From: Candidatus Omnitrophota bacterium
GTDB taxonomy: Bacteria > Omnitrophota > Omnitrophia > Omnitrophales > JACQLI01
Reading direction: 5' to 3'
Length of the DNA stretch: 37,056 nt
NCBI GenBank assembly: GCA_016204125.1
Contig: JACQLI010000007.1
Location: 1 to 37,056, forward strand
A program made the position numbers and the translations under genes. Below, one piece after another: positions 23,139 to 34,847 of the stretch (position 1 is its first letter; every line of letters starts with the position of its first letter). The notes beneath the pieces are model-generated. The model worked only from the letters and a program-made list of their open reading frames with translations, was not told the DNA's origin and made no database searches.

Positions 23139-23167
23139 ATTATAGATGAGTGCTTGGGGGGTGTCAA
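23139..23167 (-). promoter_or_regulatory. Consensus sigma70 promoter for the lysS operon
   Basis: Minus strand TTGACA (23167-23162), exactly 17 nt, then TATAAT (23144-23139); ends 33 nt before the lysS ATG. Confidence 0.88.
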
Positions 23168-25485
23168 ACTCTCTTGCGGTGGGTCTGTTCGTGGAATACG
23201 GCTTGAGGCCCAAAAGGCTTCAGAATAATCAAGGCGATTGGAAGCAGGATAAGCGTGCAACCCAATGAAAAGAGGATGGTTATGCTCGTCAAGATTCCAA
23301 AATAGACCGTGGGTTTGAAAGTGGCAAAAATGCTGGTGGCGAATCCGAAAACCAAGATCAGGGTAGCCACCATCATGGCCCTTCCCACATTTCTATAGGT
23401 ATGGTGAAGGGCCTGAAGGTAATGTCTCCTGTGCATAAATTCAGTCCGAAACCGATAGAGAAACTGAATGGAGGCGTCAACCACAAGACCCAGAACCACG
23501 CTTGAGATCATAGCCGTGGGGGTTGAGAGCTCAATCCTTGAATAACCCATGATTCCGTAAAGCCCCACGATCGGAATGAGATTAGGAATAGCTGCAAGGA
23601 GAGCCATTTTGAGGGAACGAAAAAAAATGGCAATTAAAGTCAGAATCAAAACAAAAGCTAGACCCAAACTATGAATCTGATTCATAACAAGCCGCTCTGC
23701 CATTTGTCCCAATAAAACGGTGCTTCCTGTGATACGGATATCATACTCTTCTTTCCAATGGGTGCGGACGTACCTCCAGATTCGATCTTCAAGGAGTCTC
23801 CCCTTTTCCGTCCCAACAGCCTTCATCCTCGCTTCAAGCCGCAGGCGACGATAATCTTTTGAAATAAAACTCCAAAAGTCAGGATTTTTAGACTCGGCCA
23901 GTTTTTCGATATATTTCTGAAGCGTTTTCTCTCTTACGGGAATAATAAAACCAAGAGGGTCTCCCATTCTGGCTTCATGGACCTTTTTGATAATCGTCGC
24001 GAGGGAATTGACTTTGGTAATCTCTTCCTGCTCTTCCAAGAAGTGACTAAGGGCGTCAACTTGTTTCATGGTTTCGACTGTAACAAACGGCTTGTGGTCG
24101 CGCCTTTCAATCGTCACGCCCAGTGAATAAACACCCGCCAAATGCTCATCAATGAAGCGGGTTGCGATGGCCAGAGGCGAACGGGTTGGGAGGTCAGCGA
24201 TCAGGTTAGTATTCACACGGATTCTCTGAACACCAACAAAGGAAAGAGCTATCAACACGACCGTTGCTATGAGAAGAATCCATTTCAGATGAAATTGAAT
24301 CTTTTCCAGATAAACGATGACCACTTGATTGAAAAAGTTTTTTTCCCGATCGTTTTCCAAGTCATGCTGGAAAGGAAGAATGGGCAAGAGAATGGGCATA
24401 AGGATCATTGCCAAAGTATAAGCGTAAAAAATCCCCAAAGCGGCAAAGAGTCCAAAACTCTGCACCGCAGGAACTTCATTTAATAGAAGAGAAAGAAATC
24501 CAACCACAGCCGTTGCGGTAGTTAGAAAACAGGGCACTCCCAGATGCTGCAAAGTAAGGGCAATGCTTTCACGTATGTTTTTGTGATGAGAACGGAGTTC
24601 CGAAAAAAGATTGATCAGGTAGATACTGTAAGTAACCGCAATAATCATAACCACAGGCGCAAGAAGGGAATTAATCAGATTGAGCGAATAACCCAAAAGC
24701 GCAATGGTTCCGAATGTCCAGACGATCGTTACAAAAACGATCGACATCGCAACTACGACGCTCGGAATATTACGATAGATCAGAAAAGTTGCCAAGATCA
24801 GAAAAAGACTCACTGAAGGGATGAAAAACATTTGATCTCTTCGGATGGCATCGATGAAATCGTGCTGTTCTACAGGAGAACCCGCCACGTAAAGTTGAGC
24901 ATCAGGCCAGGCAAAAAATCCAAGGGTTGAGCGGAGATCGCTCACATAACCCCGAAGGAAATGGGGGTCATCGGACTTGGGTTTGAGGCGGATGAGAATA
25001 GCGCTGACTTTTCCATCTTCAGAAAGAAGATTCCCTAAGAAAAAGGGGTTGGAAAGAGCCTCCTTCTTGAATTTTTCCATCGGTTTCTTTCCTTCTAAAA
25101 CACCTTCGATGACAGGTTCTACCTTGACACCAAGAACCCTGTGTTTAATATCAAGGGCATTGGTCAAACTTAAGACCCGATCAACCCTCGGATCTTTTGA
25201 GAGAATTTTTGTCAGGATGTCTGTCAGAAGAAGATTCCGCATCGTGAAATAATCAGGGGTCTTGATAGCAATGGCGATCAGGTAATCGCTTCCGAAGTTT
25301 TCTCTAAACTCTCGGTAGAATTGATACGCTGGTGTTCGTTTTTCAAAAAGCGCCTCTGTCGAAGGATCAATTTTGAGTGAGGGAAGCGCGTGGGCAAAGG
25401 AAAGGGTCGCTAGAATAAAAACTAAAAGAAGCGGCCACCGCAGAAGAACAATAACCTTACCAAATTTTCCGAAAAATTGGCTCAA
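23164..25485 (-). CDS. MMPL/RND family lipid exporter
   Basis: Two repeats of TM + periplasmic domain + 5 TM; motifs PCFLTTATAVVGFLSL, AIPNLIP and GLVVD. TTG start with TAAGG upstream; an in-frame TAA at 25498-25500 bounds the 5' end. Confidence 0.9.
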   Translation of the reverse strand: MSQFFGKFGKVIVLLRWPLLLVFILATLSFAHALPSLKIDPSTEALFEKRTPAYQFYREFRENFGSDYLIAIAIKTPDYFTMRNLLLTDILTKILSKDPRVDRVLSLTNALDIKHRVLGVKVEPVIEGVLEGKKPMEKFKKEALSNPFFLGNLLSEDGKVSAILIRLKPKSDDPHFLRGYVSDLRSTLGFFAWPDAQLYVAGSPVEQHDFIDAIRRDQMFFIPSVSLFLILATFLIYRNIPSVVVAMSIVFVTIVWTFGTIALLGYSLNLINSLLAPVVMIIAVTYSIYLINLFSELRSHHKNIRESIALTLQHLGVPCFLTTATAVVGFLSLLLNEVPAVQSFGLFAALGIFYAYTLAMILMPILLPILPFQHDLENDREKNFFNQVVIVYLEKIQFHLKWILLIATVVLIALSFVGVQRIRVNTNLIADLPTRSPLAIATRFIDEHLAGVYSLGVTIERRDHKPFVTVETMKQVDALSHFLEEQEEITKVNSLATIIKKVHEARMGDPLGFIIPVREKTLQKYIEKLAESKNPDFWSFISKDYRRLRLEARMKAVGTEKGRLLEDRIWRYVRTHWKEEYDIRITGSTVLLGQMAERLVMNQIHSLGLAFVLILTLIAIFFRSLKMALLAAIPNLIPIVGLYGIMGYSRIELSTPTAMISSVVLGLVVDASIQFLYRFRTEFMHRRHYLQALHHTYRNVGRAMMVATLILVFGFATSIFATFKPTVYFGILTSITILFSLGCTLILLPIALIILKPFGPQAVFHEQTHRKRV

Positions 25486-25510
25486 TTTTGTGGTACCTTA
25501 GTGTTCAAAA

Positions 25511-34076: not shown

Positions 34077-34085
34077 TGTTAGAAT
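34077..34085 (+). promoter_or_regulatory. Putative extended -10 promoter (TGTTAGAAT) for the FabL-like gene
   Basis: TGnTAnnnT ending 9 nt before ATG 34095; pyrimidine-only spacer and no SD. Confidence 0.5.
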
Positions 34086-34094
34086 CCTTTCTCT

Positions 34095-34847
34095 ATGAAA
34101 CGGTTTGAAGGAAAGACCGCCTTAATCACAGGAGCCTCCCGAGGCATAGGTCGGGCTATTGCCGAACTCCTGTCGCGTGAAGGAGCCCACATTGTACTCA
34201 ATTTTGTGCGCAATGAGGAAGCGGCTTGTAAAACTGAAAAGGCCTTAACGAACAATGGCGCCCGCGTTCTCAAAATCCAGGCCAATGTAGGAAACCCCAA
34301 AGAAGCCCAAACGCTGGTTGAAGAAGCGGGCAAGGCCTTCGGAAAAATCGATATCTTGGTTCATAATGCAGCCCTTGGCGCCTTTAAACCCGTTTCTGAG
34401 CTTCGCGTCAATCAGTGGGACCTCTCTCTCGATGTCAACACAAAGGCGCTTCTTGTTCTCGCGCAGTCGGCTCTCCCTTGGATGGAAAAGGAAGGCGGCT
34501 CCATCATCACGCTTTCAAGTCTGGGATCTAAAAGATACATTCCTAATTACGGAGCCATTGGAATTTCAAAGGCAGCGCTGGAGGCGCTTGTTCGTTATTT
34601 GGCAGTAGAACTCGCGCCAAAAAAAATTCGAGTCAATGCGGTCTCGGGTGGCCTCGTTGACACCGATGCGATTCAATCTTTCCCCCACATCGATAATTTA
34701 AAAAAGGAAGTTGTTCGCCGGACTCCAGCTAACAGAATTGGGAAGCCCGAGGATCTTGCCAAGGTGGTCGCGTTCCTGGCGAGCGAAGAAGCCGCCTGGA
34801 TTTACGGCCAGACGATCACGGCTGACGGCGGTCTTTCTCTCATCTGA
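34095..34847 (+). CDS. fabL: FabL-like enoyl-ACP reductase (SDR)
   Basis: TGASRGIG, HNAA, SSLGS and NYGAIGISKAALEALVRYLAVEL (Y-x6-K spacing as in Bacillus FabL), plus RVNAVSGG. Confidence 0.82.
   Translation: MKRFEGKTALITGASRGIGRAIAELLSREGAHIVLNFVRNEEAACKTEKALTNNGARVLKIQANVGNPKEAQTLVEEAGKAFGKIDILVHNAALGAFKPVSELRVNQWDLSLDVNTKALLVLAQSALPWMEKEGGSIITLSSLGSKRYIPNYGAIGISKAALEALVRYLAVELAPKKIRVNAVSGGLVDTDAIQSFPHIDNLKKEVVRRTPANRIGKPEDLAKVVAFLASEEAAWIYGQTITADGGLSLI

Follow-up and report, generated by a model that had tools for sequence, protein, structure and literature searches.

The 37,056-bp contig C30 of a Candidatus Omnitrophota assembly, which was analyzed over its entire length and is called the window below, carries at 23164–34847 a real and conserved second lipid gene cluster resembling a type II fatty-acid synthase (FAS). 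The cluster is uncharacterized in the literature, as searches gave no characterized cluster with this gene combination. Its product is probably an envelope lipid, a prediction from the gene content. The more specific reading, about which we are evenly divided, is that the cluster is a dedicated type II FAS-like system that operates alongside the housekeeping FAS and supplies an envelope-lipid pathway. The results showed that the carrier, priming, and condensing genes are inherited as a block together with the genes for a FabZ-fold protein without the catalytic His, a FabL-like short-chain dehydrogenase/reductase (SDR), and a thioester reductase. A preliminary description of this DNA, made from the sequence alone, had proposed an undescribed lipid biosynthetic system with reductive release, glycosylation, and export, and had not recognized the gene combination as that of a known cluster. 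The observation was confirmed, and its interpretation was partly supported.

Gene content and layout of the cluster

Coordinates and translations were taken from a list of open reading frames (ORFs) with longest-ORF starts, and domains were assigned with Pfam and NCBIfam. The assembly comprises 1.11 Mb and is 73% complete, and the stretch is present in four DNA runs, all from one groundwater metagenome study. Every gene named in the preliminary description was found at its position in the ORF list and by its Pfam and NCBIfam matches. The cluster consists of the following genes.

23164..25485 (−): MMPL/HAE3-type resistance-nodulation-division (RND) transporter, 773 aa, putative lipid exporter; PF03176, 112.9 bits; sterol-sensing domain
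25511..26653 (+): membrane glycosyltransferase family 2 (GT2) protein, 380 aa, HpnB/CruG-like; PF00535, 88.6 bits
26650..27789 (−): stand-alone thioester (acyl-acyl carrier protein/CoA) reductase, an SDR of the NAD_binding_4 family, 379 aa by longest ORF; PF07993, 176.3 bits
27740..29041 (−): KS1, intact FabF-type ketosynthase (KS), 433 aa; Cys-His-His; fabF equivalog, 494.5 bits
29028..30317 (−): KS2, degenerate partner KS, 429 aa; Ser-His-His, Cys replaced
30274..30735 (−): predicted FabZ-fold hotdog protein without the catalytic His; profile-profile comparison and structure model
30702..31103 (−): AcpS-type 4'-phosphopantetheinyl transferase (PPTase), 133 aa; PF01648, 54.4 bits; TIGR00556, 57.6 bits against a cut-off of 45.35
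31109..31507 (−): long acyl carrier protein (ACP), 132 aa; PF00550, 49 bits, residues 8–63 only
31509..32129 (−): small class I S-adenosylmethionine (SAM)-dependent methyltransferase, 206 aa; PF08241, 49.4 bits
32180..33787 (−): B12-binding radical SAM protein with DUF4070, 535 aa; PF04055, PF13282, PF02310
34095..34847 (+): FabL-like enoyl-ACP reductase of the SDR type, 250 aa, divergently transcribed; PF13561, 240.5 bits

The genes from the methyltransferase to the reductase had been described as overlapping or abutting, and this was borne out by the ORF coordinates, where neighboring genes are at most 5 bp apart and overlap by up to 50 bp (longest-ORF coordinates). The GT2 and reductase genes are convergent and overlap by 4 bp; the MMPL and GT2 genes are divergent, with their start codons 25 bp apart. 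Family-specific NCBIfam matches were below their cut-offs except for KS1 on the fabF model, and AcpS exceeded the cut-off of TIGR00556.

Conservation of the cluster as a block

Forty relatives of the same order were surveyed, the KS2-positive loci (20) were taken, and the window proteins were mapped onto them by tblastn. A KS2 orthologue (46–73% identity) was found in tandem with KS1 in 20 of the 40 relatives, namely in 4/4 genomes of the window's own family (f1), 12/12 of f5, 3/3 of f8, and 1/1 of f6. The two closest families, f1 and f5, contribute 16 loci, which show the order FabL-like SDR, radical SAM (where present), methyltransferase, ACP, AcpS, hotdog protein, KS2, KS1, reductase, GT2, MMPL (where present), and lysS. 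The reductase gene lay directly downstream of KS1 in 15 of these 16 loci, and the 16th was cut by a contig end. GT2 and the methyltransferase were each found in 14, as was the FabL-like SDR, for which the remaining two loci were cut by contig ends. The AcpS gene lay between the ACP and hotdog genes in 17 of the 20 loci; it was missing in L097, L100, and L101, of which L100 and L101 end before the AcpS position. Thus, among the flanking genes that the preliminary description had joined to the core, the reductase, GT2, methyltransferase, and FabL-like SDR genes accompany it (14–15 of 16 loci), whereas the radical SAM gene mostly does not (3 of 16).

In the f5 loci, the methyltransferase and ACP genes are separated by an additional FabZ-like gene, which is catalytically complete. 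This gene is absent from f1, and the window's own genome has only a fusion of LpxC and FabZ (see below).

The cluster always lay between lysS-lolCDE and lnt-side genes. On the far side of the FabL-like SDR, f5 loci regularly showed Lnt and a protein of about 870–895 aa (L087 15129–16823; L091, L097, and L102), and on the other flank lysS and lolCDE-sized ORFs, the Lol identity of which is shown in the window only. With Lnt on one flank and lysS/lolCDE on the other, the cluster sits between lipoprotein-maturation genes.

The ketosynthase pair, the hotdog protein, and the long ACP

The preliminary description had distinguished an intact KS from one lacking Cys, and this holds for KS1 and KS2, respectively. 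The Cys-His-His triad of KS1 was present in 27/27 orthologues. The KS2 gene, which was always immediately upstream of KS1 in the loci examined, encodes a triad that differs between families: S-H-H in four of five f1 sequences and S-N-H in one, S/A/T/F-N-H/N/D in f5, A/V-x-F in f23, A-H-Y in f10, and an intact C-H-H in f8. These residues suggest that KS2 is a decaying, non-catalytic partner of KS1. In a quick maximum-likelihood (IQ-TREE) tree, the KS phylogeny that had been called for, KS1 formed a clade of 27 rows (SH-aLRT 99) and KS2 another of 27 rows (SH-aLRT 100), both apart from the housekeeping FabF of the f1 genome G003 and from a KS of the biotin operon. The two subtrees were congruent, with f1 and f5 as sister groups in both. 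The tree omits the planctomycetal KS2, which was recovered in three tblastn pieces, and the KS1 of L083, which lies at a contig end. Together, the presence of an own ACP, an own PPTase, and a pair of intact and degenerate KSs agrees with the earlier proposal of a specialized type II FAS-like system.

The start of the hotdog protein is probably the Met located 10 codons inside the ORF, giving 143 aa. The protein had no Pfam match, and its NCBIfam match to FabZ reached E = 1.3e-3. When compared by hhalign with the active FabZ-like neighbors, it gave a probability of 97.9% and an E-value of 4e-13, with the His-bearing segment appearing as a gap. An AlphaFold model (predicted local distance difference test, pLDDT, 82.5) had Campylobacter jejuni FabZ as its top Foldseek match (E = 5.5e-7, TM 0.69). 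In the motif of the central helix, the residues Glu, Ala, Gln, and Gly were invariant across 13 sequences, and none of 15 hotdog sequences, including that of the window, had a catalytic His. Thus, the 'degenerate FabZ' of the preliminary description is supported by profile comparison and model as a protein with the predicted FabZ fold from which the catalytic His is absent.

The ACP had been described as long, and its length of 132 aa agrees with this; the alignment showed, however, that the extra length is due not to a tail but to about 45 residues inserted between helix III and helix IV, and that this insertion is conserved. In the model (pLDDT 89.7), extra helices were found at residues 81–90 and 105–111. 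ACPs of 72–101 aa in the PDB aligned to both ends of the model (TMt 0.8–0.86), and none of them had the insertion. The attachment-motif Ser was invariant across 18 sequences, as were 34 further columns. ACPs of 128–130 aa form clusters in the ESM Atlas that are mostly from Planctomycetota.

The structural neighbors of the ACP model include several cryo-electron microscopy complexes of mycobacterial AcpM on the MmpL5 transporter. This gives a hint that an ACP could dock on a pump of the MMPL type.

Separation from housekeeping fatty-acid synthesis

The housekeeping fab genes had been noted as absent from the window, and plsX, fabH, fabD, a short acpP, and a ketoreductase (KR) gene were indeed not found there among the ORFs of at least 100 aa by Pfam. 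Likewise, tblastn with the housekeeping locus of G003 detected no plsX, fabH, or fabD in the 73%-complete assembly. G003 carries a plsX-fabH-fabD-fabG-acpP-fabF locus, and a separate fabD and short acpP were present in all five cluster-bearing relatives examined, which are 94–97% complete. Thus, the cluster does not hold the only fab genes of the lineage. Given these genes in the relatives, the window genome's own housekeeping locus is most likely located in the 27% of the genome missing from the assembly.

That the cluster represents the housekeeping fatty-acid genes of a reduced genome is scarcely credible. Such a reading would account for the long ACP being the sole ACP found in the own assembly, for the failure to find FabD there, for the location of its only other KS in a biotin operon, and for the fabF equivalog score of KS1, which barely reaches the cut-off (494.5 against 493.75); it is countered by the incompleteness of that assembly, by the separate short acpP and fabD of all five relatives, by the full locus of G003 in the same family, and by the absence of the cluster from about half of the order and from 234 of 301 genomes of the phylum.

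Two further loci of the own assembly contain related enzymes. On contig C85 (L001, 4497–9157), a third KS (400 aa, Cys-His-His) and an SDR are located inside a bioB-SDR-KS-bioF-bioA operon, which suggests that this KS/KR pair is dedicated to pimelate synthesis for biotin. On contig C51 (L002, 4643–6784), an LpxC-FabZ fusion of 437 aa is followed by LpxA, and this fusion has the sole canonical FabZ domain found in the assembly.

Distribution of the core and hydrolase-type variants

The long ACP (E ≤ 1e-20) was detected in 67 of 301 Omnitrophota genomes that were at least 80% complete. The positive families were f1, f5 (52/57), f6, f8, f10, and the distant f23 (8/9), and none of about 55 others was positive. 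The f8 cluster comprises an active FabZ-like protein, a FabG-like KR, ACP, AcpS, the hotdog protein, KS2, KS1, an alpha/beta hydrolase, DUF1571, and a HAD protein, and no reductase, GT2, MMPL, or methyltransferase gene was found near the f8 loci. The f23 cluster (five loci) comprises an active FabZ-like protein, ACP, the hotdog protein, KS2, and KS1; AcpS was detected in three of the five loci, and a FabG-like KR upstream of ACP also in three. Three of the f23 loci are flanked by a pair of GT2 (35–40% identity) and FabL-like SDR (53–58% identity), and two by a hydrolase-DUF1571 pair. The linkage of GT2 and the FabL-like SDR to the core is thus seen independently in a cluster with another arrangement. 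Outside the phylum, a genome of Isosphaeraceae (Planctomycetota) contains, in this order, a FabZ-like protein, a long ACP (45% identity), a hotdog-like protein, KS2-like pieces, KS1 (55%), and a hydrolase; at a distance of 2.6 kb beyond the hydrolase, DUF1571 gives a weak match. Its KS2 homologue (L116 11203–12483) was recovered in three tblastn pieces, which may reflect a frameshift or an assembly error.

The variants of f8, f10, f23, and Isosphaeraceae share with the window the long ACP (45–54%), the His-less hotdog protein, KS2, and KS1 (55–63%) in the same order. They differ from it in having an active FabZ-like dehydratase and an alpha/beta hydrolase with DUF1571, and in f8 and f23 also a FabG-like KR, and in lacking the thioester reductase, the methyltransferase, and MMPL. 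Since the core recurs with differing partners, ACP-hotdog-KS2-KS1 is an ancient module in which the parts for release and tailoring can be exchanged, and the reductase, methyltransferase, and MMPL, plus the radical SAM, constitute the f1 and f5 version of the cassette.

Candidate genes for release, glycosylation, export, and tailoring

The translation of the reductase shows a glycine-rich NAD(P) loop and Y-x-x-x-K, and its score on the thioester-reductase domain model TIGR01746 was 140.6 (cut-off 213). The GT2 translation shows a D-A-D motif, and its best NCBIfam matches were HpnB (182.5, cut-off 379) and CruG (144.9, cut-off 600). MMPL scored 213.9 bits on the HAE3 model TIGR00921 (cut-off 351.9), and the FabL-like SDR 305.6 on the FabL equivalog (cut-off 328). 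The identity of these and neighboring genes as hopanoid genes was rejected on the basis of the scores for HpnB (as above), HpnN (97.9 against 752), HpnJ (38.7 against 578), and HpnA (52.9 against 368).

At the level of whole genomes, the orthologue profiles showed that the FabL-like SDR and MMPL track the cluster, in line with their earlier inclusion in it. An orthologue of the SDR was present in 4/4 f1, 12/12 f5, and 1/1 f10 genomes; the other seven families had none. In all five f5 genomes lacking an adjacent MMPL gene, an MMPL orthologue of 48–49% identity was found elsewhere; among five near-complete genomes of cluster-less families, the best MMPL match was 22–26% identical, and two had no match. 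The FabL-like SDR of G002 (L086 5101–5687) was recovered as two overlapping tblastn pieces, possibly owing to a frameshift or an assembly error.

The best NCBIfam match of the methyltransferase was the DVU_1556 family (46.1, cut-off 155), and the gene was not found in the f8, f23, f10, or Planctomycetota cluster variants. A BioC-like role in O-methylation of malonyl-ACP was considered and dropped (TIGR02072, 20.2 against 185).

The radical SAM protein has the CxxxCxxC motif, and its start is supported by homologues. Its top NCBIfam match was TIGR04072, the equivalog 'lipid biosynthesis B12-binding/radical SAM' (72.8, cut-off 360), and within Omnitrophota, among the 120 clusters listed, the homologues were 60–85% identical. 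Homologues of lower identity were found in f8 (47–49%, 2/3 genomes) and f6 (38%).

Comparison with known systems

The preliminary description had pointed to the anammox clusters proposed for ladderane synthesis. Anammox Cluster I (KustE3603–3608) encodes amxACP, amxFabZ, amxFabFmut, amxFabF2, a phytoene-dehydrogenase-like protein, and a B12 radical SAM protein, and its own function is unproven (10.64898/2026.05.19.726425; PMC13459092; PMC2649909). The preprint reports biochemically and structurally that FabF2 and FabFmut form a heterodimer similar to that of KS with chain-length factor (CLF), which decarboxylates malonyl-ACP to start synthesis (10.64898/2026.05.19.726425). The likeness holds for the architecture: both clusters encode a dedicated unusual ACP, a FabZ-like protein, and two FabF proteins, with the gene for the degenerate one directly upstream of that for the intact one, and in the window a B12-binding radical SAM gene likewise stands at one end of the block. 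The differences concern (i) the ACP, which has the 45-residue insertion here and a long 3-10 helix in amxACP, as described in the preprint (10.64898/2026.05.19.726425), (ii) the hotdog protein, which lacks the His, (iii) the absence of a phytoene-dehydrogenase homologue from the window, and (iv) the additional AcpS, methyltransferase, thioester reductase, GT2, MMPL, and FabL-like reductase.

Orthology to Cluster I did not find support. PDB sequence searches with the ACP, hotdog protein, methyltransferase, KS1, and KS2 gave generic relatives only. Ordinary FabF scored higher than entry 9s5h with both KS1 (382.7 against 307.8/238.9) and KS2 (268.7 against 205.2/153.4); 9s5h consists of two different KS chains and may be the anammox pair, its identity being unverified. 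In the fold search with the hotdog protein, amxFabZ ranked sixth among many FabZ structures with near-equal scores. It is therefore very unlikely that the cluster is an orthologue of Cluster I that makes ladderane-like or otherwise cyclized lipids. The common architecture (10.64898/2026.05.19.726425; PMC13459092), TIGR04072 as the top match of the radical SAM protein, and the 'ladderane' clusters that antiSMASH has reported in Omnitrophota metagenome-assembled genomes (MAGs; PMC9902471) speak for it, and they are outweighed by the score on TIGR04072, far below its cut-off, by the lack of a phytoene-dehydrogenase-like gene in the window (Pfam scan), and by the KS scores given above, with the stated reservation about 9s5h. 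Furthermore, the ACP's two best matches in the PDB cover only residues 1–62 and 4–68 and none of those listed was titled anammox, the hotdog protein had no PDB sequence match at E ≤ 1, no anammox methyltransferase was among the eight PDB matches of the methyltransferase, and the FabL-like enoyl reductase argues for saturated chains. The authors of the antiSMASH survey note that the function of the Omnitrophota clusters is unknown (PMC9902471). These clusters may be the same type of locus as ours, and the present cluster could explain the 'ladderane-like' clusters reported by genome-mining tools outside anammox bacteria.

An intact KS and an adjacent paralogue with a lost triad are also found in the KS/CLF pairs of type II polyketide synthases (PKSs), such as those of actinorhodin and ishigamide. 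In contrast to these pairs, both KSs described here are derived from FabF: KS2 scored 268.7 on Bacillus subtilis FabF and 155 on the actinorhodin CLF. Moreover, KS2 keeps Ser-His-His in f1 and Cys-His-His in f8, and the enoyl reductase points to reduced chains. The rhizobial AcpXL cluster for very long chains, acpXL-fabZXL-fabF2XL-fabF1XL-...-lpxXL, has in the same order a special ACP, a hotdog gene, and two tandem FabF paralogues; the window differs in having no LpxXL-type acyltransferase and a putative release by reductase. Mycobacterial FAS-II, with AcpM, KasA/KasB, HadAB, and MmpL, combines a long ACP, a pairing of catalytic and non-catalytic hotdog proteins, and MmpL export. The extra length of AcpM is a tail, whereas that of the present ACP is internal, and the NCBIfam scores were low for both AcpM (32.7 against 146) and KasA/KasB (266.9 against 560).

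Aryl-polyene and flexirubin clusters encode aryl-starter enzymes and a set of polyene-forming enzymes that has no enoyl reductase. The window has a KS with a CLF-like KS, an ACP, GT2, MMPL, and a methyltransferase in common with them, and the variants add two hotdog proteins (f5, f8, and f23), a KR (f8 and f23), the hydrolase, and DUF1571. Still, a pigment of this kind is a quite improbable product, since the FabL-like enoyl reductase is a conserved member of the cluster and the window contains no aryl-starter enzyme, adenylating enzyme, or LolA-family match. The matches of the f8 reductase to the flexirubin FlxB model (252.7 against 340) and of the f8 dehydratase to an ApeI-like model (E = 8.5e-4) are confined to the f8 variant and lie below the cut-offs.

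The heterocyte glycolipids of cyanobacteria are envelope fatty-alcohol glycosides. Their gene set (hgl) comprises a glycosyltransferase (GT), transporter, KS, CLF, ACP, KR, dehydratase (DH), enoyl reductase (ER), thioester reductase, PPTase, and acyltransferase (AT) (PMC11804610). Nine of these functions have candidates in 23164–34847, namely KS, CLF, ACP, DH, ER, thioester reductase, PPTase, GT, and exporter. The hgl system uses multidomain proteins resembling type I or polyunsaturated-fatty-acid synthases, with AT and KR, and an ABC exporter, whereas the present cluster has discrete type II proteins, no AT or KR, and an MMPL pump. The likeness is one of the parts list.

Proposed pathway and alternative explanations

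In the pathway that we propose for a dedicated second FAS-like system, AcpS would prime the long ACP, and KS1 and KS2 would form a KS/CLF-like heterodimer that primes from malonyl-ACP and extends with it. For keto-reduction and, in f1, also for dehydration, the system would borrow FabG of the housekeeping FAS and the LpxC-FabZ fusion. The hotdog protein without His could serve as a non-catalytic or partner subunit, and the FabL-like SDR would saturate the chain. The thioester reductase may then release the product in the form of an aldehyde or alcohol, GT2 may add a sugar to a lipid hydroxyl, and the MMPL pump may carry the lipid away from the cytoplasmic membrane. Tailoring of the chain would fall to the methyltransferase and, in loci that have it, to the B12 radical SAM protein; C-methylation by the latter is a guess from its enzyme class.

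Several findings weigh against this proposal. The window has no KR and the f1 cluster no active dehydratase, so the cycle must borrow enzymes, and the cluster encodes no acyltransferase or starter enzyme. The housekeeping FAS was not directly seen in the own assembly at its 73% completeness. The MMPL gene is adjacent in 8 of the 16 f1/f5 loci, that is, in half. A reductase homologue was found in none of five f23 genomes (94–100% complete; this search had no positive control), while elsewhere the same query recovered orthologues of 47–69% identity by tblastn (f1/f5 loci). GT2 accompanies the reductase in 14 of the 16 f1/f5 loci. Since a related GT2 is also linked to the core in f23, where no reductase homologue was detected, the acceptor of the sugar need not be the product of the reductase. 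The acceptor hydroxyl may be located elsewhere on the chain, and glycosylation of the alcohol is a step that we infer. Simple collinearity of the genomes within a single order could account for some of the conserved gene arrangement, and since f1 and f5 are sister clades of kindred genomes, few independent events stand behind the co-occurrence counts.

The radical SAM gene, the most exotic part of the cluster, is a variable member and the least securely attached one. Besides the window, it stands beside the core in 3 of the 16 f1/f5 loci, about one fifth. Of 13 other Omnitrophota loci, 6 have a phosphatidylserine decarboxylase gene after it, joined in five of these six by one for a CDP-alcohol phosphatidyltransferase (L003 stops at the contig end). 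A radical SAM paralogue of about 695 aa precedes it in at least 7 of the 13 loci, and in the window's own genome this paralogue is located on a separate contig, C10. Among 79 loci of 35–51% homologues in other phyla, no KS or ACP neighbors and no conserved neighbor were found, the commonest neighboring family occurring in five loci. The radical SAM protein may act on membrane lipids in general. That it, and possibly MMPL, stands outside the pathway, with the radical SAM protein modifying bulk membrane phospholipids and brought here by local rearrangement, is a serious contender that falls somewhat short of an even chance. What holds it back is that orthologues of at least 72% identity are confined to the families whose cluster is of the reductase type (f1 4/4, f5 10/12), the cluster-less families having none, and that in f1 as well as f5 the adjacent gene is found at an identical position, with the FabL-like SDR on one side and the methyltransferase on the other. 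Both contexts concern lipids, hence the two readings are not exclusive. In L106 (3557–11120), a BtuC-like gene, an ABC ATPase (BtuD-like), and a corrinoid adenosyltransferase are located upstream of the paralogue and the radical SAM gene, and with L003 and L108–L111 arranged likewise, several f5 genomes have B12 handling, two radical SAM proteins, and phospholipid head-group genes together. Since both Omnitrophota contexts thus combine lipids and B12, we read the protein as a putative lipid-modifying class B enzyme.

A different fate of the reductase product is also conceivable. The reductase belongs to the same NAD_binding_4/thioester-reductase family as ElbD, which in myxobacteria is a multidomain protein, whereas the present reductase stands alone. 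It might, in the manner of ElbD, supply a fatty aldehyde or alcohol for alkyl (ether) glycerolipids and not for an alkyl glycoside, with GT2 and MMPL acting on other lipids or on the ether lipid. The independence of GT2 from the reductase in f23 fits this, and so does a Black Sea survey, which reports that 93 of 267 Omnitrophota MAGs have homologues of ElbD (PMC11868695), among which the present gene may or may not be counted. We consider it rather unlikely, as the window contains no alkyl-DHAP (dihydroxyacetone phosphate) synthase, acyltransferase, or other ether-lipid gene. To a similarly small degree, we entertain a bolder form of the dedicated envelope-lipid system, in which the long-ACP cassette, present in some of the Omnitrophota and at least one genome of Planctomycetota, would be a very-long-chain envelope-lipid synthase with exchangeable release: by the hydrolase in the variants, and here by the reductase, with the methyltransferase and radical SAM protein, giving a new class of long-chain alkyl glycolipid, branched anaerobically or modified in another way, that MMPL would place in the outer envelope of these very small cells. 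On this supposition, the hydrolase-type product is perhaps (omega-1)-hydroxy C26–C32 acids, which are bound lipids of some planctomycetes (PMC3327967).

The Omnitrophota are widespread and almost wholly uncultured, and the cluster provides a concrete, testable entry to their lipids. Its ACP is unlike any solved one, the KS partner is found at differing stages of active-site decay, which bears on how KS/CLF pairs arise from FabF, and the release modules are swapped between lineages. If the product is an ordinary fatty alcohol derivative, the interest would be modest.

Other features of the window

Two further ORFs lie next to the cluster.

33832..34074 (−): conserved 80-aa ORF upstream of the operon; no Pfam match; counterparts in f1
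35056..36168 (−): aldo/keto reductase, 370 aa, possible accessory gene, weakly linked; PF00248, 88.3 bits

ORFs 71–75% identical to the 80-aa ORF occur at the same position in the f1 loci L084 and L086, and no match was found in the other 18 of the 20 loci, including all f5 loci. The aldo/keto reductase gene adjoins the FabL-like SDR gene in 4 of the 16 f1/f5 loci (L083, L084, L087, and L089).

The remaining ORFs of the window with Pfam matches (at least 100 aa) are housekeeping genes: tRNA synthetases, tmk, holB, ispDF, mlaFED, clpC-mcsAB, ilvE, lolCDE, and lysS. The contig ends contain a CAAX-protease-like gene, tatD, the aldo/keto reductase gene, and a weak DUF3858-like ORF. Between mlaE and clpC, an ORF of 627 aa (12752–14635, −) gave no Pfam match at E ≤ 1e-5. 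A scan for promoters and terminators over 22900–35200 gave no excess over shuffled sequences (15 against 12.4; 19 against 16.7). A sigma-70-type sequence matching the consensus at 12/12 positions was observed at 23167–23139 (−), between the MMPL stop codon and lysS; its location upstream of lysS fits lysS having its own promoter.

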